NCBI RefSeq assembly: GCF_018350175.1
Contig: NC_058368.1
Coordinates: 59,708,001-59,772,000 of the forward strand
Direction: 5' to 3'
Origin: Felis catus
Lineage: Eukaryota
DNA length: 64,000 bases
Made by a program: the position numbers and the translations under genes. Under the pieces are notes generated by a model. That model did not search any database. It saw nothing but the letters and a program-made list of their open reading frames with translations, and had not been told where the DNA came from. Below, piece after piece: positions 4,535 through 54,998 of the stretch. The stretch's first letter is position 1; each line of letters starts with the position of its first letter.

Positions 4535-5285
4535 TTATTCCTCCCTCTATTGCAACCTCTGGCAACCAGTGATCTTTTTACTGTATCCTCAGTTTTGCCT
4601 TTTCCAAAATGCCATAGAGCTGGAATCATACAATATGTTGCCTTTTCAGATTTGATTTTTTTCACCTAGCAATATGCATTTATGGTTCCTCTGTGTCTTT
4701 TCATGGCTTTTAATAGCTTGCTTCTTTATAGCACTGAATAATATTCCACTGTCTGGATGTGTCAGAGAGTGTTTATCCATTCAACTCCTGAAGAATATCT
4801 TGGTTACTTCTGAGTTTTGGCAATTATGAATAAAACTGCTGCTATACACTTCTGTGTGCAAGAATTTGTGTGGAAGTAAGTTTGTAGCGTCTGTGTGTAA
4901 ATTTCAAAAAGTGAGATTGTTGGGTCATATGGTAACAGCGTGTTTAGGCAGCATGTGAGGCAGGATGGGGGGTGGGGAGAACCTGTCAAACTTTTGTCCA
5001 AAGTAGCTCTGCATTTTACCTTCCATCAGCAGGTATATGAGTGAGAATATCTGGTATCCACATCCTCTCCAGCACTCAGTGTCATCAGTGTTCGGGATTT
5101 GGGCAATTCTCTTAAGTATATAGTGGCATCTATTGTTTTAATTTGCATTTCCCTGGTGAAATATGATGTGGAGCACCTTTTCATATGCTTATTTGCCATC
5201 TGTATATCTTCTTTGTTCAGGTGTCTGTTAAGGTCTTTGGCCCATTTTTTTAGTCAGATTGTTTATTTTATTTCATTGAGTTGTT
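4535..5285 (-). mobile_element. Old L1 (L1MB/L1MC-like) 3' fragment
   Basis: Reverse ORF2-end peptide LPYDPTISLFEIY, similar to [13 protein letters not shown] in the intact L1. Typical antisense text GATGTGGAGCACCTTTTCATATGCTTATTTGCCATCTGTATATCTTCTTT. Confidence 0.85.
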
Positions 5286-7989: not shown

Positions 7990-8735
7990 TGTCCACTACT
8001 AACCAGATAAGGAGGGCCTTTCCAAGTAGATTCAGCAGAACACGAAAAAAGCTGCTTTTCCAGAAGGCCTAGCCAAAGCCAATGTTTCAGAGAAAGGCAC
8101 AGGCTTCAGGAGCAATGTTTCAGAGAAAGGCACAGTGACAGCTTTTGTGGAGTTAGCCTGGTACCCCATGGTGCATTGGAGCTGGTGACTCAGCAAAGGT
8201 GAGCCTTTGCCTACCTCTCCTGTAGGTACTGAGAAGGCCCTGGAGTAGGCTTTGCAAAAACGATGAGGACACTTGCCTGCTATTGGCTGAGACCACAGAG
8301 AGTGCAAAGGGGAGGCTGGACTTTGCAAAACCATGAGGATACCTACCTGCTATTGGCTGAGACCGGGGAGATTGCAAAAAGGAGGTTGATTTCTTTATCC
8401 CAGGAAGGGAACTGCCCATAGTCTGCAGTCTGGCAGGAGGCAGGACAGGCAACTGGTGTGCTACACAGGAGTAGAGTCTTTCTGTAAGTCAGTAGGGTAC
8501 CTGTCAGAGTCTGTACTCACCCGACAGGTATCCTGAGTTTCCAATGATAGAGGAAGCATGACATTAAATAGCAAATAAAAACACAGGACAAATCAAGAGA
8601 GAAAGAAAGACAGAAAAGAACAAGTGTTATATTGTGGTACCTTTCATGGCACTTCTCCCCCTTGCTTTTTGAAGAAGAGACCCTATGTTTCATTCTGCCA
8701 TCGCCATGCAAATTAATTATCTAGCTATGGCCTCA
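7990..8735 (+). mobile_element. MER45-family hAT-Tip100 non-autonomous DNA transposon fragment (tentative)
   Basis: The 3' end TTTTGAAGAAGAGACCCTATGTTTCATTCTGCCATCGCCATGCAAATTA..ATCTAGC resembles the recalled MER45 terminus (ttttgaacaaggggccccgcattttcattttgcactgggccccgcaaattatgtagcc). GC-richer than flanks. Left boundary uncertain. Confidence 0.5.
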
Positions 8736-10944: not shown

Positions 10945-11605
10945 TTTTTCTGAAGGAAATGAAAACACTAACTTGAAAAGATATATGTGCCCCATGTTTC
11001 CTACAGTATTATTTACAATAGTCAAGACATGGAATCAACCTCAGTGTCCACCAATGGAAGCATGGATAAAGAAAATGTGGTATATATACAGAAAGGAATA
11101 GTATTCAGCCATAAAAAAGAAGGAAATCTTGTCATTTATGACAACATGGATGGATTTTGTGGACATTATGCTAAGTGAAATAAGTCAGATGGACAAAGAC
11201 AAAATACCATATTATCTCACTTATACAAGGAATCTTAAAAACAGAGCTCATAGATACAGAGAGCAGATTGATGATCATCAAAGGCAGAAGTAAGAGGGTA
11301 GGTGAAGTGGGTGGTGGTAGTCAAAGATACAAACTTCTAGATACAAAATAAATGAGACCTGGAGATGTAATATATAGTATGATGACTATAGCTAATAATA
11401 ATGTATTGTGTATCTGAAAGTGCTAAGTGTGTAGATATTAAAAGTTCTCATCACAAGAAAAAATATTAGTAATTATGTATGGTCATGGATGTTAACTAGA
11501 ATTACTGTGGTGATCATTTCACAATATATGCAAATATTGAATCATTATCCTGTACAACTGAAACTAATGTTGTATGTCAATAAAAATAAAACAAATAAAA
11601 ATAAA
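10945..11605 (+). mobile_element. Old L1 (L1MA-like) 3' end
   Basis: ORF2 C-terminal peptide MCPMFPTVLFTIVKTWNQPQCPPMEAWIKKMWYIY, then ATGCTAAGTGAAATAAGTCAG, a 3'UTR and an A-rich tail. Confidence 0.9.
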
Positions 11606-19832: not shown

Positions 19833-21409
19833 AGTTACAATTTAGTTTTTAAGTAAACTTGAAGTAAATGGGAACTTACATTTCAAATACATTTTATTAG
19901 TTAAAATCTCTGGTTAATAAATAATAATCATGAGAAACTTCTTGGATTATCATTAAAGTGGTAGATTTTTACTGTCACTATTACTATATTTTATTCTACT
20001 GTAGTTTTGATTATCTCAATAAATATGGAAATATCTCTTAAAAAATGTTACCTGCTCATGACCAGGGAACTTTGTAAAATAGGAATAAAAGGAAACTTTA
20101 TTTTCTTAGCAAGGCAATAAACACAAGAGATCCAGAACTCTTACATGAAAATATTACTAATTATGACTATAAAAAAAATGAGAATAATTTCAGCAAAAAT
20201 ACCTTAAACTAAAAACAAAGGGACTAACAGGACTAATTTCTATGCTTAACACTTGTTCTGATGTTTTGATTTCTTCAGAGGTTTTTACACATCAATGAGC
20301 AACATTGTTTTAAAATTATGCATCAAGAATTTTACATAAATAAATTTAAGTTACCATCCCATATATTACACAATATTAAATTTGGTAATAATAAATATAA
20401 ATTAAAATAACAATGAGATGTAATTTTAAAAATTTCAAGAGAGCAAAACCAGATAATTTATAATACACGTTGCCTGAGAGATTATGAAGAAGCCTGAATT
20501 CTCATATGCTCTTTGTTGATATTCTGAATTGACACTATAGTTTTTTAATACTTGGGAGTGGGGAGAGTGGCCAATCTTGGCCATTTTTAAAATATGCATT
20601 TGCTATATTTCACCAACAACATCTCTAGGAATTTACCTTATACATATATTGACATGCGAGGGCAAATAATAAATAGTCATGTGCTATTTTTAAAAAAGCA
20701 GTATCTGTTTTTGCAAATATATTTATACTATCAAATGTCTACAAACAACAGTTTGTTCACATTAAAAATGTTGTGTATCATCATGATCCAGTGTATTATA
20801 AACATAGTAAAGCCAGTGAGGAGAAATAAGGATAATTATATGTAATTCACTTATTTTTTAGCAATGTCTAATGATCCCATCAAATTCTCCCCCTTGCTAA
20901 TCCATTAGTTTACTTGTAATCATCTAGTAGTAGACTAATAAATGTTTATAACTAATCAATGCTTTGTTAGAGAGAAGCTAAACTTAATTATCACCTCTAA
21001 GGGTAAAAAGACAATGCTGAAAATCCTTAGGCCTTAAAACCCTCAGTTATATTCAATAGAATATATCTATGTAAATTGGTTTTCTCATGTTTACCACAGT
21101 TATATGATTATATCAATGTCAGTGATCCCAAACTACAGAATCTGCCTAGACAAACATAGGATAAGCTCTGTCAAATGAATAAGCTGAAAATTAGTATCAT
21201 TTCACTTAATGTACCTAGATAAATCCATTTAGATGATTTACTTTGCAAACACACTGCCTTGTTTATTTTTGTGAAATCTGCAAACTATAAGTCATTTGGC
21301 TTGTTAATATGGCTTAACAGCATGGAAACTGCACCATTTTTACTGAAATGTGTATCAATAACATATTGAGCTTTTTTTAAAAAAAGTTTTAATTGAAGGG
21401 TAAAAACAC

Positions 21410-22331
21410 GAAGATGGCGGCTTAGGAGGACGCTGGGCTCACCGCGCGTCCTGCTGATCACTTAGATTCCACCTACACCTGCCTAAATAACCCAGAAAAC
21501 CGCCAGAGGATTAGCAGAACGGAGTCGCCGGAGCCAAACGCAGACGGGAGGCCCACGGAAGAGGGTAGGAAGGGCTGCGAGGCGGTGCGCGCTCCACGGA
21601 CTGGCGGGAGGGAGCCGGGGCGGAGGGGCGGCTCGCCGGCCAAGCAGAGCCCCCGAGTGTGGCTGGCAAAAGCTGAGGGGCCTGACGGACTGTGTTCCGA
21701 CAACAAGCGCGACTTAGCTTCTGGGAAGTCATAAGTTAACAGCTCTGCTCGGAAAGCGGGAAGGCTGGAGGACAAAGGGAGGGAGAGCTGCTGAGCCCCC
21801 TGACGACAGAGCTCAGCTTGGTGGGGAACAAAGGCGCTCGCCAGCGCCATCTCCCCCGCCCATCCCCCAGCCAAAATCCCAAAGAGAACCAGTTCCTGCC
21901 AGGGAACTTGCTCGCTCCTTGCAAACACACAACTCTGGGCTTCTGCGGAGCCACCTCCGGCAGGGCAGCGGATCTGACTCCCTCCCGCTGCCACAGGGCC
22001 CCTCCTGAAGAGGATCACCTAAGGAGAAGCGATCTAAACCTGCCCCTCCTGCCCCCGTGCACCTTGCCTACCCACCCCAGCTAATACGCCAGATCCCCAG
22101 CATCACAAGCCTGGCAGTGTGCAAGTAGCCCAGATGGGCCACACCACCCCACAGTGAATCCCGCCCCTAGGAGAGGGGAAGAGAAGGCACACACCAGTCT
22201 GACTGTGGCCCCAGCGGTGGGCTGGGGGCAGACATCAGGTCTGATTGCGGCCCCACCCACCAACTCCAGTTATACACCACAACACAGGGGAAGTGCCCTG
22301 CAGGTCCTCACCACGCCAGGGACTATCCAAA
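21410..22331 (+). promoter_or_regulatory. L1 5'UTR / internal Pol II promoter, CpG island with YY1 site
   Basis: AAGATGGCGG (YY1 consensus) at 21411-21420. Abrupt switch from very AT-rich flank to GC/CpG-rich sequence exactly at the TSD. Confidence 0.88.
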
Positions 22332-23225
22332 ATGACCAAGCGGAAGAATTCCCCTCAGAAGAATCTCCAGGAAATAACAACAGCTAATGAGCTGATCAAA
22401 AAGGATTTAAATAATATAACAGAAAGTGAATTTAGAATAATACTCATAAAATTAATTGCTGGGCTTGAAAACAGTATACAGGACAGCAGAGAATCTCTTG
22501 CTACAGAGATCAAGGGACTAAGGAACAGTCACGAGGAGCTGAAAAACGCTTTAAACAAAATGCATAACAAAATGGAAACCACCACAGCTCGGCTTGAAGA
22601 GGCAGAGGAGAGAATAGGTGAACTAGAGGATAAAGTTATGGAAAAAGAGGAAGCTGAGAAAAAGAGAGATAAAAAAATCCAGGAGTATGAGGGGAAAATT
22701 AGAGAACTAAGTGATACACTAAAAAGAAATAATATACGCATAATTGGTATCCCCGAGGAGGAAGAGAGAGGGAAAGGTGCTGAAGGGGTACTTGAAGAAA
22801 TAATAGCTGAGAACTTCCCTGAACTGGGGAAGGAAAAAGGCATTGAAATCCAAGAGGCACAGAGAACTCCCTTCAGACGTAACTTGAATCGATCTTCTGC
22901 ACGACATATCATAGTGAAACTGGCAAAATACAAGGATAAAGAGAAAATTCTGAAAGCAGCAAGGGGTAAACGTGCCCTCACATATAAAGGGAGACCTATA
23001 AGACTCGTGACTGATCTCTCTTTTGAAACTTGGCAGGCCAGAAAGAATTGGCACGAGATTTTCAGGGTGCTAGACAGAAAAAATATGCAGCCGAGAATCC
23101 TTTACCCAGCAAGTCTGTCATTTAGAATAGAAGGAGAGATAAAGGTCTTCCCAAACAAGCAAAAACTGAAGGAATTTGTCACCACTAAGCCAGCCCTACA
23201 AGAGATCCTAAGGGGGACCCTGTGA
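22332..23225 (+). CDS. L1 ORF1p (RNA-binding nucleic-acid chaperone: coiled coil, RRM, CTD), 297 aa from ATG MTKRKN
   Basis: Uninterrupted frame. E/K-rich coiled coil, [16 protein letters not shown] RRM start ([15 protein letters not shown]), and C-terminal ARK and YPASLS motifs matching human ARR and YPAKLS. The ORF track starts 29 codons upstream at a non-ATG codon; the first ATG is at 22332. Confidence 0.96.
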
Positions 23226-23275
23226 GACAAAGTCCCAGAGACATCATTACAAGCATAAAACATACAGACATCACA

Positions 23276-26200
23276 ATGACTCTCAACCCGTATCTTTCTA
23301 TAATAACACTGAATGTAAATGGATTAAATGCACCAACCAAAAGACATAGGGTATCAGAATGGATAAAAAAACAAGACCCATCTATTTGCTGTCTACAAGA
23401 GACTCATTTTAGACCTGAGGACACCTTTAGATTGAGAGTGAGGGGATGGAGAACTATTTATCATGCGACTGGAAGCCAAAAGAAAGCTGGAGTAGCCATA
23501 CTTATATCAGACAAACTAGACTTTAAATTAAAGGCTGTAACAAGAGATGAAGAAGGACATTATATAATAGTTACAGGGTCTATCCATCAGGAAGAGCTAA
23601 CAATTATAAATGTCTATGCGCCGAATACCGGAGCCCCCAAATATATAAAACAATTACTCATAAACATAAGCAACCTTATTGATAAGAATGTGGTAATTGC
23701 AGGGGACTTTAACACCCCACTTACAGAAATGGACAGATCATCTAGACACACGGTCAATAAAGAAACAAGGGCCCTGAATGAGACATTGGATCAGATGGAC
23801 TTGACAGATATATTTAGAACGCTGCATCCCAAAGCAACAGAATATACTTTCTTCTCGAGTGCACATGGAACATTCTCCAAGATAGATCATATACTGGGTC
23901 ACAAAACAGCCCTTCATAAGTTTACAAGAATTGAAATTATACCATGCATACTTTCAGACCACAATGCTATGAAGCTTGAAATCAACCACAGAAAAAAGTC
24001 TGGAAAACCTCCGAAGGCATGGAGGTTAAAGAACACCCTACTAACGAATGAGTGGGTCAACCAGGCAATTAGAGAAGAAATTAAAAAATATATGGAAACA
24101 AACGAAAATGAAAATACAACAATCCAAACGCTTTGGGACGCAGCGAAGGCAGTCCTGAGAGGAAAATACATTGCAATCCAGGCCTATCTCAAGAAACAAG
24201 AAAAATCCCAAATACAAAATCTAACAGCACACCTAAAGGAACTAGAAGCAGAACAGCAAAGGCAGCCTAAACCCAGCAGAAGAAGAGAAATACTAAAGAT
24301 CAGAGCAGAAATAAACAATATAGAATCTAAAAAAAGTGTAGAGCAGATCAACGAAACCAAGAGTTGGTTTTTTGAAAAAATAAACAAAATTGACAAACCT
24401 CTAGCCAGGCTTCTCAAAAAGAAAAGGGAAATGACCCAAATAGATAAAATCATGAATGAAAATGGAATGATTACAACCAATCCCTCAGAGATACAAACAA
24501 TTATCAGGGAATACTATGAAAAATTATATGCCAACAATTTGGACAACCTGGAAGAAATGGACAAATTCCTGAACACCCACACTCTTCCAAAACTCAATCA
24601 GGAAGAAATAGAAAGCTTGAACAGACCCATAACCAGCGAAGAAATTGAATCGGTTATCAAAAATCTCCCAACAAATAAGAGTCCAGGACCAGATGGCTTC
24701 CCAGGGGAGTTCTACCAGACGTTTAAAGCAGAGATAATACGTATCCTTCTCAAGCTATTCCAAGAAATAGAAAGGGAAGGAAAACTTCCAGACTCATTCT
24801 ATGAAGCCAGTATTACTTTGATTCCTAAACCAGACAGAGACCCAGTAAAAAAAGAGAACTACAGGCCAATATCCCTGATGAATATTGATGCAAAAATTCT
24901 CAATAAGATACTAGCAAATCGAATTCAACGGCATATAAAAAGAATCATTCACCATGATCAAGTGGGATTCATTCCTGGGATGCAGGGCTGGTTCAACATT
25001 CGCAAATCAATCAATGTGATACATCACATTAACAAAAAAAAAGAGAAGAACCATATGATCCTGTCAATCGATGCAGAAAAGGCCTTTGACAAAATCCAGC
25101 ACCCTTTCTTAATAAAAACCCTTGAGAAAGTCGGGATAGAAGGAACATACTTAAAGATCATAAAAGCCATTTATGAAAAGCCCACAGCTAACATCATCCT
25201 CAACGGGGAAAAACTGAGAGCTTTTTCCCTGAGATCAGGAACACGACAAGGATGCCCACTCTCACCGCTGCTGTTTAACATAGTGCTGGAAGTTCTAGCA
25301 TCAGCAATCAGACAACAAAAGGAAATCAAAGGCATCAAAATTGGCAAAGACGAAGTCAAGCTTTCGCTTTTTGCAGATGACATGATATTATACATGGAAA
25401 ATCCGATAGACTCCACCAAAAGTCTACTAGAACTGATACATGAATTCAGCAAAGTTGCAGGATACAAAATCAATGTACAGAAATCAGTTGCATTCTTATA
25501 CACTAACAATGAAGCAACAGAAAGACAAATAAAGAAACTGATCCCATTCACAATTGCACCAAGAAGCATAAAATACCTAGGAATAAATCTAACCAAAGAT
25601 GTAAAGGATCTGTATGCTGAAAACTATAGAAAGCTTATGAAGGAAATTGAAGAAGATTTAAAGAAATGGAAAGACATTCCCTGCTCATGGATTGGAAGAA
25701 TAAATATTGTCAAAATGTCAATACTACCCAAAGCTATCTACAAATTCAATGCAATCCCAATCAAAATTGCACCAGCATTCTTCTCGAAACTAGAACAAGC
25801 AATCCTAAAATTCATATGGAACCACAAAAGGCCCCGAATAGCCAAAGGAATTTTGAAGAAGACCAAAGCAGGAGGCATCACAATCCCAGACTTTAGCCTC
25901 TACTACAAAGCTGTCATCATCAAGACAGCATGGTATTGGCACAGAAACAGACACATAGACCAATGGAATAGAATAGAAAGCCCAGAACTAGACCCACAAA
26001 CGTATGGCCAACTCATCTTTGACAAAGCAGGAAAGAACATCCAATGGAAAAAAGACAGCCTCTTTAACAAATGGTGCTGGGAGAACTGGACAGCAACATG
26101 CAGAAGGTTGAAACTAGACCACTTTCTCACACCATTCACAAAAATAAACTCCAAATGGATAAAGGACCTAAATGGGAGACAGGAAACCATCAAAACCTTA

Positions 26201-27097
26201 GAGGAGAAAGCAGGAAAAGACCTCTCTGACCTCAGCCGTAGCAATCTCTTACTCGACACATCCCCAAAGGCAAGGGAATTAAAAGCAAAAGTGAATTACT
26301 GGGACCTTATGAAGATAAAAAGCTTCTGCACAGCAAAGGAAACAACCAACAAAACTAAAAGGCAACCAACGGAATGGGAAAAGATATTCGCAAATGACAT
26401 ATCGGACAAAGGGCTAGTATCCAAAATCTATAAAGAGCTCACCAAACTCCACACCCGAAAAACAAATAACCCAGTGAAAAAATGGGCAGAAAACATGAAT
26501 AGACACTTCTCTAAAGAAGACATCCGGATGGCCAACAGGCACATGAAAAGATGTTCAGCGTCACTCCTTATCAGGGAAATACAAATCAAAACCACACTCA
26601 GGTATCACCTCACGCCAGTCAGAGTGGCCAAAATGAACAAATCAGGAGACTCTAGATGCTGGAGAGGATGTGGAGAAACGGGAACCCTCTTGCACTGTTG
26701 GTGGGAATGCAAATTGGTGCAGCTGCTCTGGAAAGCAGTGTGGAGGTTCCTCAGAAAATTAAAAATAGACCTACCCTATGACCCAGCAATAGCACTGCTA
26801 GGAATTTATCCAAGGGATACAGGAGTACTGATGCATAGGGCCACTTGTACCCCAATGTTCATAGCAGCACTCTCAACAATAGCCAAATTATGGAAAGAGC
26901 CTAAATGTCCATCAACTGGTGAATGGATAAAGAAATTGTGGTTTATATACACAATGGAATATTACGTGGCAATGAGAAAAAATGAAATATGGCCTTTTGT
27001 AGCAACGTGGATGGAACTGGAGAGTGTGATGCTAAGTGAAATAAGCCATACAGAGAAAGACAGATACCATATGGTTTCACTCTTATGTGGACCCTGA
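23276..27097 (+). CDS. L1 ORF2p (APE-type endonuclease, reverse transcriptase, C-terminal CCHC), 1273 aa from ATG MTLNPY
   Basis: Uninterrupted frame. EN motifs [26 protein letters not shown] and SDHN. PIP-box-like [10 protein letters not shown] motifs [25 protein letters not shown] and KYLGI. Zinc knuckle [18 protein letters not shown] (CX3CX7HX4C). Confidence 0.98.
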
Positions 27098-27302
27098 GAA
27101 ATTAACAGGAACCCATGGGGGAGGGGAAGGAAAAAAAAAAAACAGGTTAGAGTGGGAGAGAGCCAAAGCATAAGAGACTCTTAAAAACTGAGAACAAACT
27201 GAGGGTTGATGGGGGGTGGGAGGGAGGAGAGGGTGGGTGATGGGTATTGAGGAGGGCACCTTTTGGGATGAGCACTGGGTGTTGTATGGAAACTAATTTG
27301 TC

Positions 27303-27308
27303 AATAAA
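27303..27308 (+). terminator. L1 polyadenylation signal AATAAA
   Basis: AATAAA ends 8 nt before the A tail, which is followed by the right TSD. Confidence 0.85.
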
Positions 27309-30169
27309 TTTCATATAAAAAAAAAAAGAAGGGTAAAAACACTATAAGGCTTATCTATTTAGAATGAATCTAAATATTAACCAAAGATCTTTTTCTTTAC
27401 AATGCTTTTAATCACCTTCAGCCAAGACTTTTACGGAAATATGTGTTCTTTTAAAATTATTGTTTCATACTTGAAAATATCCATTTTAAAGATTTTAAGG
27501 AAGTTATTTATTTAAATCTCTAATATTTCAAAAATATCTATTGGTATATCATTTCATTCTATTTTTCAACCATTGAAAGACTCTTTAATGACCATCAAAT
27601 ATTTCCATGGGTATTTATCTTTTATTTATAGGAATGTTTAAAGCATCTTTTATCAAAGCAGGGGACACACATGTGGTTCAGTGCATTTTTTAATTGCTCT
27701 ATTTCTTTAAGAGAGGTTTTTGGCATTTACAATAATTATCTTCCTTTCCTCTGTGGGGTTTCTATTATTCTCTGAGTCCTGGCACTGTCCAACTGCCTTG
27801 ATAATTATTGCTGCTAAATACTGTGATTATGTTTCTTGATTTAAGAGAGGATTTTTTATCACAACAAAATATCTAAATTAAAACTGAAAGGAAATTACCA
27901 TCTCATTGTCTCCACTTATACTCTAAGTATCTATCTATCTATGTAATATCTAGGTATAGATAATTTCATATTTTGGAAGTAACTTAAAAAATAAAATGTT
28001 TCATTATCCAAGAGTATTTGATCTTATTTCTAGGCATAGTGGACTCTGCATTAAAACAGTTTTAAAGTAATTATATACTTTGGTCAATTTGGTGTCAGTT
28101 TGATTAAATCAACTAAGAATTGAAGAGTGAATACATAATGGTAGAGTGAGTAGCTCTTTACTTATGAAATTTATAGAAAAGAAATTCTGACCTAAGTACT
28201 GGATCAGAAAATGTTAATAGGATACTATTCCTTCATCTAGGATATAATTGTAGGAGTTCATGTTTTCTAATTATATTGGTTAGAAGAAATGCTCATGTTG
28301 ATCACTTTCTAATTTAACCATCTCAGTAGAAAACATTAGTATTTCCAAACTCATAAGAATCTGATGGCTTGAATTTCTGTCTTGTTCACATTATAATTTT
28401 ATTATTTGCACTATGACATTCAATAGTCCAATGTTTACTAACCTGACTAGAATCTCAGAGTTAGATGCAGGCTCCTGACTCCTCAATAGTCTGTTTTCCA
28501 GAAGTCTACATTCAAACATATTTTTTAATTAGATGATTAAATAATATTAATAGAGAATACATATGTATGACACAATGCCAAGAAATGAGAAGGATGTGAT
28601 GCAAAAAATAAGTTTTCTTCACAGCCCTGTCACTATGATGTAATTACTTGCTGTTGAAACATCCAGTTATGAGTTTTTTCTCCCCTTTTTGCAGAGATAC
28701 TCTACATAAATAGCTAGATAGAAATTCTCTCTTTCTCCATATATATGTTAGCATACATGCAGGTATATATTTAATAAATAAATGTGCATGCATTTTACAC
28801 AGAAGATACCCTATATATATTCTCTTCCACACTTCCTTAAATTAAAAATCTGTCATGAAATTACTGTTGTATTAGTACCTGTAGCACTAAGGCTGTATTT
28901 AGAAATCAATGGGTTCCACCGACCTTAACCTAGATGTTTGCTAAATGATTACATGCCCTATTTGTATACTTTACACTCTGTTCAGATGATCAATGGATCC
29001 CTTTCCAGTGTAGGTATTCTACATATAATGATAGAAATCACAATTGCATCTATTATCAGAATTATAAATTCAGCATTCCTGAATCTCTTTATAAGTTTGT
29101 AACTTGGAGAACTGACACAAATTATCTTAAGCTTGCTCTTTGATTTTTGCAATGAATAATGTAAGACACAATAGCAATAACTGAATAGATTATAAATAAC
29201 TTATTCCTTGTCTTCTGTAGCCCTTTAGAAACCTGACCTACATGACAACAAAGATTTTCAGAAATGCTTTTGCTTCTTTGTGTGTAATCACAATCTAAAA
29301 ATCTACTTTAGATTTTTGGCACACTGTTTTCCTACTAGAAACTGAATATGATGCATGTTTATCTCCCTCGTATTATAACGTAACATCTATACATCTGAAT
29401 CCTGATCTTGGTGTATCTTTTATTGAGTAAACTATTGCAATACACCACTCCTGTCAGGCATTGAATAATGGTCTGGAAAACCTGGCTTGGTTAAATACTC
29501 ATATCCTACATTTCCATTATATCGAACTTTTAAAAAAACAAACAATATTTTATAACCTACATTTCTGTCATTTTTCAATGTAAAATATCAGTTGCTATAA
29601 ACGCACTGTTTTTCTTATAATTTCAGTTGTTTCAGGAAGAGAGAAAGTGAATCGAGTTGCGTTTTGGCAGATTCTACTTAAAGCTTGAACAAAATCAAGG
29701 CATGTATGGGATAAATGTAACATATGATCTTCAATTATATAAACTTTTTCAAAAAGTTACTGCCTCTAACCTCTTCTTTTGACTGAAATATAGTCATCAG
29801 GCAAACAAAAATCCCTTTGTAGCTTCTTGAATGAAATTTGCTCACCTGTTCTTCTATATATTTTGCAAGATCTGTTGGAGACTGGTGTGAACTTTTTTTT
29901 AGGACATTCTGGTGGCCTCGGGTAAAACACCCAACTGCATTAAATCCCAGTACCTTGATATACCATTCACTACAGTCCTCTTCCTAATAGGTCCCTCTGT
30001 TATATCTGTCTGGGCATTTGACACCTAAATCACAGCTGGGTTTGCATTCCAAACATCTAGTAATAGGATACTCAAGTAACCCTCCAGAACTGGCTCATCA
30101 ACTTGCTTATTATCAGTAATTTCCACTTATACTTTACTTCAGTAATTCAATGGTAGGTCCATTCTGAAT

Positions 30170-42400: not shown

Positions 42401-43399
42401 GACCATGAAGTTAAGATAGTTTCCAGATTTTACCTCTTTTCTCTCAAATCCATGTGACCCTCAAATAGAAATTTAAGTTCACTAGGGTTCAGCAGATGTG
42501 TCAAATGGAAAATCAAGGTTAGACACACATCCCCACTCAGCATTCACAGTCCTATTTGGTTTTGGCTTCTGATAATATTTACTTTTTTTTTTTTGGAGCA
42601 GATTTCTTTTTACTCTGTCTCCATATCCATCTCTCATTTTCATTGGATTTAGTGATTGTATTTGTGATAAAATTAAGTGTGCCATTCTGCAAGGACAGAA
42701 GTTTTTTGTTCTGTTGTTAATATACTTTGCGGTAATCAGTCCAGATTCTAACAGTAGTGTCAATAATTCATCTTTTAATTTATTATTATAAATATTCTAG
42801 AGGACACACATGGTAGGATGAAATAAGTGCTAGCCAGCCACATGCTATTTTAAATATATCTCTTTTTTTTTTTACTTCTGTATCATTTCCTCCATTACTG
42901 AGGGTAGATAATCACATACTCATTTTTATTTCTATGTAAGTTGAATGAAACTTTATGAATGCAATTTTAAATGTGTACCTGCTTATTGTTTTTGAGAAAT
43001 GCTATGTTTAGCTTTGACAATTCTAGGGAAGGGTGATCCTGAAAATCACAGCACTCTTATGAACTTGGGTAGAATATAAATGGAAGGCTAGATCTATCCT
43101 CCTACTAAGTTATATTTTAAATCTTCTTTGTTCATGGCCCTAAAGACATTAATGTAATTAGTGCCAAAATTTTTAAGCAAAGTGCCTTGCTATTAAATAC
43201 CCAAAGGTCAGTAATTCGTATTAGTCAATGGTTAAAAGTAACAATTGCTATATTTAGCAACACTGATATCAAGCTAAACATCCCTAAATTGTAGTAATGT
43301 AACAGATTTAAAAGTCTACCTAGAACCTAATGTTTACACTAATACTAAAGTTCTTGGAAAATGAATATTTTCTTTGGAAAACATTAGAATATCCAACAT

Positions 43400-43900
43400 A
43401 TGGAAACAATGCAAGGATCCATGGATGGATGACTGGATAAAGAAGATGTGTTGTGTATATATATATACAATGGAATACTACTCAACCATAGAGGAGAATG
43501 AATCTTGCCATGTGCAACAACATGGATGGACATGGAGGGTGTTATGCTGAGTGAAGTAAGTCAGAGAAATGCTACATGATTTTGCTTATATGTGGAATCT
43601 AAGACAAACAAACAAACAACAACAACAACAACAAAAACCCAGGTCCATACAGAGAAGGGAGGAAAATGGGTGAAGGAGGTTAAGAAGTACAGAGTTCCAG
43701 TTTTAAGATAAGTAATGGGACTGTAATATACAGTAATAACATTGTTTTAGTTTTATAAAGTGACAGATGTTACCGAGAGTTATTGTGGTGACCATTTCAA
43801 AATGTATACCAATATATAAAAATGTGGAATCATTGTGTTGTATACCTGAAACCAGTATAATATCTTGATTATACCTTAATAAGAAAAAAAAAAACAAAAA
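43400..43900 (+). mobile_element. Old L1 (L1MA/carnivore) 3' end
   Basis: GATGACTGGATAAAGAAGATGTG, ACAATGGAATACTACTCA and ATGCTGAGTGAAGTAAGTCAG motifs, 3'UTR and A tail. Confidence 0.88.
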
Positions 43901-45964: not shown

Positions 45965-46770
45965 ATTTTTAATTTTATTTAAATCCAAGTTACCTAACAT
46001 AGAGTGTAATAATGGTTTTAGAAGTAGAATTTAGTGATTCCTCACTTACATATAACATCCAGTGCTCATCCCAAGAAGTGCCCTCCTTAATGCTCATCAC
46101 CCATTTATTTGTTCTATTTGTGAGTCTCTTATGGTTTGCCTCGCTCTCTGTTTTCATCTTATTTTTCCTTCCCTTCCCTGATGTTCATATGTTTTGTTTC
46201 TTGAATTCCACGTATGAGTGAAATCATAATATTTATCTTTATGTGGCTGACTTATTTCACTTAGCATAATATAGTCTTGTTCCATCCACGTTGTTGCAAA
46301 TGGCAAGATTTCATTCTTTTTGATAACCGAGTAATATTCCATTGTATGTATAAACCACTTCTTTATCCATTCCTCAGTCGATGAACATTGGGATCTTTCC
46401 ATAATTTGGCTATTATTGATAGGGCTGCTATAAACATTGGGGTGTGTGTGGCCCTTTGAATCAGCATTTTGTAATCCCCCTTTGAATCAGCAATGTATCA
46501 GCAATTGTTGGGTCATAGGGTAACTCTTTTTAATTTTTTTGAGGAATCTCTATACTGCTTTCCTAAGTGGCTGCACTAGTTTGCCTTCCCACCAACAGTG
46601 CAAAAGGATTCCCCTTTCTCTGCATCGTCACCATCTGTTGTTTTCTTTTAGCCATTCTGACAGGTGTGAGGTGGTATCTCATTGTGGTTTTAGTTTGTAT
46701 TTCCCCGATGATGAGTGATGTTGAGCATCTTTTCATGCGTCAGCCATCTGGATGTCTTATTTGGAAATTT
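45965..46770 (-). mobile_element. Carnivore L1 3' end
   Basis: Reverse peptide QCSSTEEWIKKWFIHTMEYYSVIKKNEILPFATTWME..IMLSEISQ matches the ORF2 C-terminus. Confidence 0.92.
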
Positions 46771-49573: not shown

Positions 49574-51061
49574 GGAGGGAGTGTGAATTGCTTCACAGGA
49601 CAGAATTATTTGCATTGGCATTGCCACTAATTCTCTGTAAAATACCTAGTTTAGTATAATTCAAAGTCAAGGATAGTCTACAAGCAGGTAAACCAGATCA
49701 TTATAAACAGTGATTGATTGTCCACTGCAGACATTGCAGGGGTAAATGAAAATTATTTCACCTTTTACAAATGTATAGAACATGATCTTTTTCTCCATTC
49801 TCTTGAAGTGTTTCTTTGTAGACATAGTGAATCTAACTCTAACAGTATATGGGGATAAATCTCACTAAAGGTTAACCCCAGTCTCCAGTTTTTACAATGT
49901 ATATTTATCTCCAAGTTTTCAGGCCAGATAACTGCTAGATATGTTAAAATGTTGCACCAGAATTAGCTGGAGTCTCTGAGGAGATGTGCAGGAGACTGTT
50001 CGGAGGGCTTTGTCTCTTGAGTTTACTTTGTTCTTTCTTCTGCTTTACTGTTTAAATTTCTGTGATAGTCTATCTGCTTTATATAAATGCAAATATGAAT
50101 ATTTACTCAGCAATTAAGTGCTTCTCTGTCTCTCTTCCAGTTGGTACAGAAGTGTTTTTTCTTTTTTTTTTTTTTTGAGGAGAAATGTTTTATTTCTACA
50201 ATACCCAGAAATAATTTTTGCTTATTCCATATTTACTTACATATCTTAGTTGATACATATGCTTTAGGGATTATAATTTTTATATGTCTTAAAAAAATAG
50301 AGGTGACTGTAAATCAATTTTGGTCAAATTTTTCAGTTTGATGTAATTCTTTAAAAATTAATTTACTCTTTTGTTATTCATTAATTATGATGTTCTTATT
50401 TTCATTTAATTTTATTGTAATGTACCTTAGAAAGCAATCTTTTTATTTGAGATACTTATATATAATCATCTGGAATATATATTTACTAAAATATTATATG
50501 GTCTATTCCCATTCTAGTCTAAAATTTTGCCTTTTAAAGAAAAAATAAATACTAATTTAATTAAACTTCCAGAAGATTATATGTATTATTCATACTTGAA
50601 ATAAACCACACTTATTGGTAAAATTGCAGTTATAATATAGGATAATTAATCAAAAGAAACAAAAACTATGTATATATGTATGTACATATCTATAGCTTTT
50701 TTTGTTGCAAATTTCACTAAATATCACTTTATTCTTCCTCAGTCATTTGAAAAAGAAATACCTTGTTTTAAATTCTACTTCTATCTACTGAAAAAAAATG
50801 ATTCTTTGATGTTCATTTGTTGAGTTTTCAGAGTTGAGATTGAAAATTTGTTTCATTCCATCCTTTATACATGTTTATTATATTTTATTTTCCATCTGTC
50901 CTAAATTTTAGAGCTAAATTTTTATAGTCTTTATGGATTTATTCTTGCTATAGTCTCTGTCAAGAATATTTACTCGTACATATTTATTAAATAAGATTTA
51001 CATAAAATATTCAGCCATTTGTTTTAGAATTAATTCACTGCTCTTTGCATGTCACACTTTA

Positions 51062-51299
51062 TTTTTTTTTATTTAAAAAAAAAATTTTTTTTTTCAACGT
51101 TTTATTTATTTTTTGGGACAGAGAGAGACAGAGCATGAATGGGGGAGTGGCAGAGAGAGAGGGAGACACACAATCGGAAACAGGCTCTAGGCTCTGAGCC
51201 ATCAGCACAGAGCCCGACGTGGGGCTTGAACTCACGGACCGCAAGATCGTGACCTGGTTGAAGTCGGACGCTTAACCGACTGCGCCACCCAGGCGCCCC
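51062..51299 (-). mobile_element. CAN-SINE, young SINEC_Fc-type
   Basis: Perfect TSD TGCATGTCACACTTTA at 51046-51061 and 51300-51315. Confidence 0.96.
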
Positions 51300-51343
51300 T
51301 GCATGTCACACTTTAGATTCTAAGACTTTGCTCTTAAGTTCTT

Positions 51344-52158
51344 TTTTGTTTTGTTTCGTTTTTTGTTTGTTTGTTTTCAATTTGTGATCTATTTATTACT
51401 CTTAGAAAATCTCATTTTTGGCTGGACTCAGACTCAGAGGTTGAAGCTCTCAGGCCACTCCATCTCTTGGCGATCTATTCCTGGCATTTTTCTTTGGTCT
51501 TCTTCATTCTCGGACAAAAGTTTGGCATATTCTTATTTTTCTTAGCAAGCTAAGAGCAACACACTGATGTTTTCACTGGAGGACACATGGAGTAACAAGA
51601 CACTGAATCTTGGGTGCTTTGGTTCTAGGTTTCTTACCTTCTTTGTTTAGGGACTTCTGGTAGGCATCATTCTTTAGAGAGATTGAAGAGTGTGTGAATT
51701 CTGCTAGCTCTTTGGGATCCCAGGCGATGAGGCACAGTAATATCAGTAAGTCCATGAATATCCTTCTCTCTCTCCTCTCTCTCTCTCTCTCTTTTTTAAT
51801 GACTAAGTTGAGAACACTTATATTGGCATCCACAATGCAACCCTGAGCAGATTTGCACTTTCTTTGTCCAGTCCTCGTTGGTCAATAGCAGGAATGCCCC
51901 TTACTCAGCAGCAGGTGGACATGGCCATGGGTCTCGATACCTTGCTTCATGAGGAAGCCTTGCTTGTCATTGTCATCACTAATTCAGACCTTGTAACCCT
52001 CACATTCTTCACTCAGAACATCAGCAGCAACTTCTGTGGCCATACACTTCCCGTTTACATTTATCATCTACTTCAATGAGTCTCTGGCAGCGAGGAGCTG
52101 AGAATGCTCAGCTTCATTCTAGAGCATCTTACTGCCTCTCAGGCACCACAAAAAAGAG
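51344..52158 (-). pseudogene. RPS6: RPS6 (40S ribosomal protein S6/eS6) processed pseudogene, full length, disabled
   Basis: The minus strand gives RPS6 peptides in order: [78 protein letters not shown] and LRASTSESESSQK*. ATG at 52117-52115, stop at 51414-51412. No introns; frameshifts and stops present. The 5' end is TOP-like (CTCTTTTTTGTGG), with AATAAA and a decayed A tail at ~51344-51377. TSD CTTAA(G/A)TTCTT at 51333-51343 and 52159-52169. Confidence 0.95.
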
Positions 52159-53499
52159 CTTAAATTCTTAATTTTACTTCATCGCACTGGAAAATTGAAT
52201 TAAAAATTACATTACTTCAAGAGTTAAAAATCTATCAGATATGTTTCCTTTTCATTGATTTTTTTTGCCTGCAATATAATGGATCCTATGAATGAATCTA
52301 CATTAATTATGTCTTTTCAATACAGAAAATATTTAGTTTCATTTGAGTAATAATATAAAAACTTGTATGTATAGTAATAAAACGCAACCAGAAAGCTTCA
52401 TAAGGAAACATAGCCGGCATTCTTTGTGCTCTTCAAGTTTTGCTCTGCAGATGAAACAGAGTTTGATTCTTTTTATGTTCCACATGAATTTTGTTTCTGT
52501 ATTTTCAATATTGTGCCTAGGTGGCTATTCCTTGTGTTTTGAATTTTCAACAATGAAAAATAACTAGTACCTTTCATAAACCACTCAGTATTATTTCCCA
52601 CATATTTATAACTTCCTTATATTTAATGAACATTTTCATATACCAATCACCAATTTATCACCAAAATACCGTAGTGTCTTTAGTGTAATTAAAATAATTT
52701 ATAAACTTCATGATTTCTTAAAAATATTTATCCTGCACTTCTCCATTCTTTTGTTTTATTCAAGAATTTTATAGTAAGTATGAATACGGTTTCCAAATCT
52801 AAAGCAAGCCTAAACACCTGGAGTACTCCCTATCCTCACCAGGGAGGGCAAAAACCAGGCTTGAGCTTTCATTCTTAACCGAGATAAATTTTAAGAATGA
52901 AAATTCCTTCTATCTCAATAAAATTCAAAGAAGAAGTTATTTGTCTTGTGATGAAAACAAGCAAGCATGTAGACATCCTCAACGACATCCAGTCTGATAT
53001 TAAAATAATAAAGCAGGAATGAGTGGTTATAAAGAACACAGTGGACATACAGAATATAGACAATATAAGAGAAGGTATAAAGAACTCAATGGTTGGATTG
53101 AGAAGCAGAATAATTGCCTAAGAAACAGTTAATGACCTAGAAGATCAGCTGGAGGAACTTGCCCATATAACATCAGTAATCAAAAGAGATGGCAGATCTA
53201 AAATGAAAAAAAAGGCATTATGAAGGAATATATATCACAAAAATAGGCATAATTCAAGCCAAGTGAATTCCAAAATGTTCTGCCTATTAAATATCATTCG
53301 TCTAAATACATCTAACTTGACCAAGTCCTAATGGATAGAAGGTATCAAAAGATGTCTCCATATTAGTCACAGCTATCGATTCTATCTGTTGGATTGATGC
53401 CCTGGGAGCCCTTCAGGTTTGTTGCATAGGATTGGGGAAGAATTATTGTGAACAGTCAGTAAGATTTGCACTCATATTGAAATAATGACCAGCAACATT

Positions 53500-54998
53500 C
53501 AACACAAAGTGAAACATATCCAATATGTTGCCTTTTACATTTTAAGAATTCCTATTAGAATCTCACCTGATTTGTTTGTATAAATTGTCATTCAACTCTA
53601 TAAATTCATAAGGAACTGTAAGAGACCAATATAAAATAGTCTTGGAAAAGTAGAACTAAGTGGGATAACTCAGAATTCCCAAATTCAAAGCTTACTACAA
53701 AGAAAGATTTATCAATAAAGTTGTGTATTGACACAAAGAAATTCATATACACTAATGAAGTAGAATTAATATTACAGATATAAATCATATTCTTCTGATC
53801 TTCTAATTTTTGACAAGGTTGCCAATTTAATTCAATGTGAAAAGAATAGTTTTATCAAGAAATGATTCTGGAAAGCTCAAACAGTTCATGTGAAAAATGA
53901 ATTTGACCCTTATCTCAAACCATATATAATAATTAACTCAAAATGGGTCAAAAACTGTAAAACTCTCAGAAGAATACATAGGGTTAAACATTTATGATCT
54001 TGGATTTGGCAAAGGATTCTTACATATGACACAGAAAAGTACAAGCAAGAAAAGACAAAATAGAGTACTTCTTTAAAAATCAAACTTATTTTTCAAAGGA
54101 CACCATCAAGAAAGTTAAAAAAATACAACTTGTAGAATGGGAGAAATTACATATCTGATAAAAAGCTTATATATCTAGAATTTATAATGAATCCTTACAA
54201 CTTAATATAAAAAGACAAATAACCAAATTAAAAATGGACAAAGGATCCGAACAGTCATATTCAAGAAGATATATAAATAACCAATATGTACATTATTACT
54301 CGTTTAAAAACGCACATCAAAACCACGAGATAAAACGTATCCATAAGAAAAGCTAGAAAAAAAACGTCAGATAACAAGAGTTGGCAAGGATGTAGAAAAA
54401 TTAGAACCCTTGTACATTGTTGGTAGGAATAAAAAAAAAAATTGTCCTAATGCATTGGAAAAGTCTGGCAGTTCCCCATATGATTAAATATAGATTTACC
54501 GGGGCGCCTGGGTGGCTCAGTCGGTTAAGCAGCCGACTTCGACTCAGGTCATGATCTCGGGGTCTGTGAGTTCTAGCCCTACGTGGGGCTCTGTGCTGAC
54601 AGCTCAGAGCTTGGAGCCTGTTTCGGATTCTGTGTCTCCCTCTCTCTGACCCTCCCCTGTTCATGCTCTGTCTCTCCCTGTCTCAAAAATAAATAAAACA
54701 TTAAAAAAAATTTTTTAAATATAGATTTACCTTATGGCCCAGCAATTCCACTCCTACATATATACCCAAAAGAAGTTGAACTCCTAAACCAAGAGTAATT
54801 AAAATATGTGTTCACACAGAAACTATCAGTATTTATAGCAGCATTGTTCATAATAGCCAAAAGTGGAAAATAAAATGGCTATTAATGGATGAATAGATCA
54901 ACAAAATATGAGATATGCATGCAATGAAGTATTATTCAACTGTAAAAGGGAATAAAGTACTGAAACATTCTATATCATGGATGAACCTTGAAAAAAAA
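53500..54998 (+). mobile_element. Old L1 (L1MB-like) ORF2 3' portion, interrupted by a SINE
   Basis: Degenerate but colinear with ORF2 of the intact L1 (AAAGCTTACTACAAAG, TTTTGACAAGGTTGCCAA, CCCAGCAATTCCACTCCTA, ATGGATGAACCTTGAAAA). Confidence 0.85.
54501..54716 (+). mobile_element. CAN-SINE nested in an old L1
   Basis: GGGGCGCCTGGGTGGCTCAGTCGG head. TSD AAATATAGATTTACC at 54486-54500 and 54717-54731; old L1 ORF2 sequence continues on both sides. Confidence 0.95.

Follow-up and report, generated by a model that had tools for sequence, protein, structure and literature searches.

Whether a LINE-1 (L1) retrotransposon that has kept both of its open reading frames (ORFs) can still act as a source of new insertions is the question raised by an element found in Felis catus, at positions 21395 to 27342 of a 64,000-nucleotide stretch of contig NC_058368.1 (assembly GCF_018350175.1, positions 59,708,001 to 59,772,000; from here on the window, to which all coordinates refer). 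An initial annotation of this locus had described a full-length felid L1 with both ORFs intact, and had proposed it as a candidate active source element. Our results agree with most of the structural description. The proposal of activity, however, found little or no support, due to changes at near-invariant columns of the ORF2 protein (ORF2p), to the share of active elements among comparable human L1s, and to the number of similar copies reported in the tiger. Based on sequence comparison, the element is probably an ageing, weak or dead copy rather than an active source.

That the locus is a canonical insertion of a young felid L1 by target-primed reverse transcription (TPRT) can be stated plainly. 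The target-site duplication (TSD), GAAGGGTAAAAACAC, is an exact 15-bp repeat that cannot be extended on either side and occurs only twice in the window, bounding an element of 5918 nt (21410-27327), and it is found together with a polyadenylation signal, a tail and a T-rich nick site, all hallmarks of TPRT. The L1 endonuclease consensus site is TTTT/AA, and the nick context seen here (Table 1) is a pyrimidine-run variant of it, and a tolerable one. Both the TSD and the pure 11-nt A tail had been read correctly in the initial annotation, as had the two stop-free ORFs of 297 and 1273 codons, which are separated by a 50-nt spacer. ORF1, with its RRM and C-terminal domain (CTD), is followed by an ORF2 encoding an APE-type endonuclease (EN), a reverse transcriptase (RT) and a C-terminal CCHC finger, as in mammalian LINE-1 elements, and with a length above 5 kb and both ORFs open end to end the element also falls within the operational definition of a full-length L1 with both ORFs intact (FLI-L1). 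In ORF2p, the EN residues N13, E42, Y114, D144/N146, D204 and H229 are present, the RT motif FADD is found at residues 699-702, and the zinc finger is intact, which bears out the motifs first noted, and a search against the PDB showed the protein to be colinear with human ORF2p over residues 4-1272 (E=0).

In terms of relatedness, the element belongs, as judged from its proteins, to a young and large cat-lineage L1 family. ORF1 is 99.3% identical to P0249, a protein seen on 13 contigs, with only two differences (positions 38 and 76), and 97.6% identical to P0121, also 297 aa long and the representative of a UniRef Felis catus cluster of 234 members (40 read, 15 listed). Such identity to a protein of a cluster this large indicates that the family is young. 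The Leu at position 38 is common to the cat protein P0248, while at position 76 the cat copy carries a Lys where 17/17 close relatives carry a Glu. ORF2 is 97.4% identical to its closest fragment, P0289, 96-97% identical to four Panthera leo fragments (P0043, P0269-P0271), and 74% to dingo. The exact ORF1 and ORF2 sequences were absent from approximately 15 billion proteins, and among cluster representatives (50% level) the best 150 did not exceed 89% identity to ORF2 and included no Felis ORF2.

Evidence against a source element comes from ORF2p. This protein was compared over 943 columns with felid cover, where comparators past residue 853 are from lion only and residues 1-272 have no close comparator. 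Twenty-two residues of the cat copy were absent from every covering felid comparator; ten of these are ambiguous, as they either match dog or resemble lineage or comparator changes, and at 12 of the 943 columns the covering felids and dog agree against the cat copy. Six of these 12 strict departures lie within the 571 columns covered by P0289, which has the conserved residue at all six. The initial description of both ORFs as intact thus holds insofar as they are open and free of internal stops, but not at the level of the protein, given that ORF2p is one residue short near position 860 and is changed at conserved columns. Four departures were compared with proteins matching the short sequence context, which are related and hence not independent counts: position 489 is a Pro in 131/133 other proteins and an Arg in none; the loop at about 860 has its full length in 134/137 others; Gly is found at position 967 in 0/162 proteins; and position 1150 is a Pro in 80/80. 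An AlphaFold model of residues 430-1273, of low confidence (mean pLDDT 54.2) and used for local helix context only, would place Arg489 in an RT helix (block pLDDT ~76) and residue 1150 close to where the helix that follows the zinc finger begins. The Asn next to Gly967 aligns to human Asn968, which is predicted to enter the PCNA pocket as part of the PCNA-binding PUB loop (PMC7617806). Six full-length dog ORF2p served as a control; over 1265 columns, unique residues numbered 1-5 in five of them and 22 in the sixth. Twelve further departures from conserved columns lie in the ends of the protein, and cannot be classified as private or felid-wide because no close felid comparator covers them. A source L1 would be expected to encode a protein free of changes at conserved sites, and this copy, with 12/943 columns changed against comparators that are mostly from lion, does not. 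The element is a LINE-1 and an FLI-L1 and, lacking this one attribute, is predicted from its sequence to be a poor candidate for a source element.

Two open ORFs are in themselves a weak predictor of activity since, of 142 L1s with both ORFs intact that were cloned from a single human genome, only 29 were active, while 113 had no measurable activity and 84 are described as old and dead (PMC10883270). Mutagenesis data point the same way, as activity close to that of the wild type survived in only 16% of 538 trialanine mutants (10.1101/721357). Against this background, one could still propose that an older, common insertion acquired changes that are private and yet tolerated, leaving it capable of low-level activity or of mobilising short interspersed elements (SINEs) in trans. 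The catalytic residues are in fact intact and the deletion falls in a flexible segment, and in humans six fixed L1s are still active, while the activity of an L1 can vary between alleles of one locus (PMC10883270). Such a proposal, however, requires that four independent non-conservative changes (489, 860, 967 and 1150) all be tolerated, the first in what is predicted to be a helix and the third adjoining the residue predicted to bind PCNA (PMC7617806), and we regard it as unlikely.

To estimate the age of the copy, the strict changes were treated as neutral and private. This gave a divergence of 0.46% (12 changes in 1240 codons; 0.24-0.81%), or 0.39% when limited to the P0289 span and ORF1 (7 changes in 868 codons), which at a rate of 0.86e-8 per 3.8-year generation (PMC9290555) correspond to 2.0 and 1.7 million years (Myr), respectively, with a range of 0.7-3.6, an estimate that leans old because some of the changes may have been inherited from the source. 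The short A11 tail agrees with this age, and both support the earlier remark that the insertion is not brand new. At a divergence of 0.39-0.46%, the chance of having acquired no stop is 0.44-0.50 and that of no frameshift, with an assumed indel rate, is 0.27-0.34, so that about 12-17% of neutrally decaying copies of that age would keep two open frames. Open ORFs here require neither selection nor great youth.

Carriers of the insertion were sought in public sequencing runs using a sample of 157 words that covers the 5' flank, the TSD and the first 31 nt of the L1. Nineteen of the 24 runs listed, from 6 studies of one coded organism, had a word share of 1.00, and after setting aside 14 of them flagged as possible source, 5 runs in 2 studies remain. 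About 3 sampled words are expected to span the junction (the chance of none is ~0.05), and one missing word would lower the share to 0.99; three runs of a second organism held 0.00 of the words, which is no evidence in either direction. Carriers are probably widespread, although the runs are ranked by word share, which favours carriers, and say nothing on allele frequency.

The opposite possibility is that the ORF2p changes diagnose a tolerant, Felis-specific sub-lineage, and that the insertion is both retrotransposition-competent and very young, and still polymorphic. No comparator from Felis was found for ORF2 beyond residue 853, Leu38 of ORF1 and Arg552 of ORF2 are shared with P0248 and with one felid fragment, respectively, and the near-identity of ORF1 to P0249, the perfect TSD, and the lack of CpG transitions on the cat side of the comparison discussed below would all suit such a copy. 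On the other hand, P0289 retains the conserved residue at every strict position it spans, the exact ORFs are missing from the protein collections whereas P0249 was found repeatedly, the tail is reduced to 11 A, and carriers appear in six studies. We find this improbable.

It is even harder to attribute some or all of the departures to assembly errors masking a true allele that resembles the active family. Indels make up most long-read errors, yet the coding sequence, about 4.7 kb in all, has not one frameshift; a collapse of repeats would draw the sequence towards the family rather than away from it; the changes at ORF1 76 and ORF2 1150 fit CpG decay, based on codon context and on putative ancestral codons; and public runs hold all the sampled flank and junction words exactly. 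In favour of this explanation, the deletion lies within an AAG run and repeats are error-prone in assemblies (PMC5203782), but overall we consider it very unlikely.

We consider post-insertion drift over 1-3 Myr, with weak or absent activity, to be the likely history of this copy, even though several results weigh against it. Every catalytic and zinc-binding residue tested is present in ORF2p. Only two of the changes (489 and 1150) affect columns at least 90% conserved in a panel of 23 proteins, and the lion fragments themselves carry 1-2 changes each at such columns. At about 860, 3/137 other proteins likewise lack a residue, and the deletion corresponds to human residues 851-871, which are not resolved in the core crystal (PMC10830420) and are of low confidence in our model, so that it may be tolerated. 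A trialanine swap is a more drastic alteration than a single change, and six human L1s that are fixed were found to be active. ORF1 closely resembles P0249, and the absence of CpG transitions on the side of this copy, relative to the related 5' untranslated region (UTR), fits a younger or an unmethylated copy. Searches of protein, metagenome, viral, plasmid and prokaryote collections returned no confirmed Felis ORF2 comparator, which makes the age estimate upper-leaning, and with lion as the sole comparator past residue 853 and none for 1-272, some of the changes deemed private may be subfamily traits.

The history would begin with an L1 of the youngest family in the cat lineage, transcribed from about the YY1 site, its first G possibly being an untemplated cap G. 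Its insertion into AT-rich, gene-poor DNA was by canonical endonuclease-dependent TPRT, as seen from the TSD, the polyadenylation signal, the tail and the nick context. Neutral drift for some 1-3 Myr would then have followed, in which the tail shrank to its present 11 A and substitutions affected about 0.4% of the bases, producing neither a stop nor a frameshift, though several fell on near-invariant ORF2p residues. Transcription and ORF1p production are probably still possible, while ORF2p is probably weak or non-functional, and the insertion is most likely a common one within its host species, and no hot source of new copies. Our search of the cat L1 literature, mostly at the level of listed records, found no report of an assayed cat L1. 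Should this copy prove active, cats would have in it a definite source for further insertions of L1s, SINEs and retrocopies, and the element would be a useful reagent, but no surprise.

The 5'UTR, in which a YY1 site and many CpGs were first noted, has 62.5% GC and 47 CpG (observed/expected 0.52) and carries the YY1 core, AAGATGGC, at its extreme edge. The sole related 5'UTR that we obtained, L001, belongs to an older subfamily, and no known TSD defines where it begins; it has about 15 more G-rich bases 5' of the YY1 core. This suggests, tentatively and from one comparator, that approximately 15 nt found at the 5' end in the family are missing from the element, which keeps the core, so that "full-length" is appropriate for a TSD-bounded element with both ORFs, but perhaps not for its very 5' end. 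An end at the YY1 core fits a transcription start at the YY1 site, as reported for mouse L1s (PMC10620060). In the first 470 nt there are 22 differences from L001, none of which is a CpG transition on the cat copy's side. Four of the 22 (21422, 21576, 21674 and 21719) are a CG in L001 and a CT in the cat copy, and may reflect a subfamily change, mutation bias or error. Across 21411-23120, divergence from L001 is patchy by segment (4.7, 18.8, 4.2, 2.8 and 17.3%), which, with one comparator, suggests a mosaic history of felid L1 subfamilies affecting the middle of the 5'UTR and the C-terminal part of ORF1.

Two antisense frames overlap this half of the element. The 125-codon ORF in the 5'UTR shows no Pfam match, and a frame at least as long arose in 254/2000 shuffles; L001 shares its ATG, but a CpG-type change introduces a stop after 33 codons. 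It is highly improbable that the young cat L1 family evolved its own ORF0-like antisense gene, a counterpart of the primate-specific ORF0, with this element among its carriers, and a literature search at the level of listed records returned no report of a non-primate ORF0. Over ORF1, the approximately 1-kb antisense ORF reported in tiger and dog L1s (PMC5203782) is absent from the cat element, where the longest minus-strand frame is of 190 codons.

Table 1. Features of the L1 insertion and of its surroundings in the window.
Feature	Position	Strand	Remarks
5' TSD, 15 bp	21395..21409	+	exact repeat; bottom-strand nick context 5'-CTTC/AA-3'
5'UTR / internal promoter, 922 nt	21410..22331	+	starts with one G, then YY1 core
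YY1 core	21411..21418	+	extreme 5' edge; core motif as given for mouse (PMC10620060)
Antisense ATG ORF, 125 codons, in 5'UTR	21473..21850	-	G at -3 and +4
ORF1, 297 aa	22332..23225	+	coiled coil, RRM, CTD; no internal stop; Pfam L1 ORF1 RRM and CTD
Antisense stop-free frame over ORF1, 190 codons	22532..23101	-	127 aa from ATG; longest minus frame
ORF2, 1273 aa	23276..27097	+	EN, RT, C-terminal zinc finger; no internal stop; Pfam Exo_endo_phos, RVT_1
Strict ORF2p departures	residues 340, 354, 421, 489, 537, 823, 890, 967, 1056, 1150, 1215; ~860 deletion		felids and dog agree
ORF2 codon 489, Arg (relatives Pro)	24740..24742	+	RT fingers helix; aligns to human 490
One-codon in-frame shortening of Lys run, ORF2 ~860-862	25853..25864	+	thumb-wrist junction
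ORF2 codon 967, Gly (Val>Gly)	26174..26176	+	adjoins Asn aligning (+2 offset) to human Asn968, PUB loop
C2HC zinc finger, intact	26657..26710	+	C1128-x3-C1132-x7-H1140-x4-C1145, from alignment
ORF2 codon 1150, Leu (relatives Pro)	26723..26725	+	5 residues past last zinc ligand
3'UTR	27098..27316	+	AATAAA at 27303-27308
A11 tail	27317..27327	+	pure
3' TSD, 15 bp	27328..27342	+	exact repeat
Old decayed L1 3' fragments	4714-5253, 10973-11233, 43384-43612, 46046-46765, 53548-54861		~70% DNA identity to young copy where aligned
Jiraiya Pfam match, below cutoff	8520-8720	-	low-complexity hydrophobic frame
RPS6 processed pseudogene	51390-52170 (approximate ends)	-	degraded (stops, frameshifts); Pfam Ribosomal_S6e E 4.9e-6

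The DNA around the element is rich in AT, and the window contains 3' fragments of old L1s together with about 20 copies of related SINEs. Outside the L1 there are 315 stop-to-stop frames with a minimum length of 50 aa, and 243 of them were compared with Pfam in a search for host genes, the 72 frames left out mostly overlapping SINEs, simple repeats or old L1 pieces. No convincing host exon was found in these 243 frames, although short exons could escape such a scan, and the only two matches were to an RPS6 pseudogene and, below cutoff, to Jiraiya, the latter probably a chance match. A SINE lies at ~51051-51324, just past the 3' end of the pseudogene, and a 70-bp tandem duplication (8250-8385) is found near the Jiraiya match.

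Related L1 sequences were also sought in other collections. Metagenomes yielded three loci, only L001 being felid-like; viral contigs gave no ORF1 match and one ORF2 match of 42%; plasmids gave no L1 match; and prokaryote genomes gave ten loci (L005-L014) with no near-identical long match. These ten are mammalian-type L1 ORF2 fragments, mostly short, on 10 contigs of prokaryote assemblies, and probably represent host contamination.

The element resembles several known systems. Its 5' end at the YY1 core is like that of the mouse donor and daughter L1s, in which 12/20 elements end within the YY1 motif or at most 21 bp away (PMC10620060), whereas the cat 5'UTR has no monomer array, no tandem repeat having been reported in it. 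Compared to the human L1 ORF2p structures (PDB 8UW3, 8SXT, 8C8J and 9HDO; PMC10830420, PMC7617806), the cat protein is colinear, but one residue shorter at the thumb-wrist junction. The human intact-but-inactive L1s of CHM1 (PMC10883270) likewise combine two open ORFs with missense changes, although they belong to another species and have assayed activity, while the cat copy is known from its sequence. With the young felid L1 family (the P0121 cluster and lion P0043, P0269-P0271) it shares ORF1 length and 97.6-99.3% identity, and differs from it by 12 ORF2p columns of its own, including the one-codon deletion, and by a 5' end apparently ~15 nt short. Finally, it is of the same kind as the FLI-L1 class of L1Base 2 (PMC5210629) and the L1s described as having both ORFs (PMC5203782), whose definition it matches; FLI-L1 catalogues list open ORFs, without activity tests. 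According to Table S6 of PMC5203782, two-ORF L1s number 423 in tiger and 424 in dog, with a single one counted in an early cat assembly, while L1Base 2 gives 1 for cat and 264 for dog, counts that are tied to assembly maturity (PMC5210629), and the apparent rarity of such copies in cat most likely stems from the assemblies. Open ORFs overstate competence, and a residue-level screen marks this copy as a poor candidate compared to family-like copies; felids probably have hundreds of L1s with both ORFs open, and this one is an ordinary new member of a known family.

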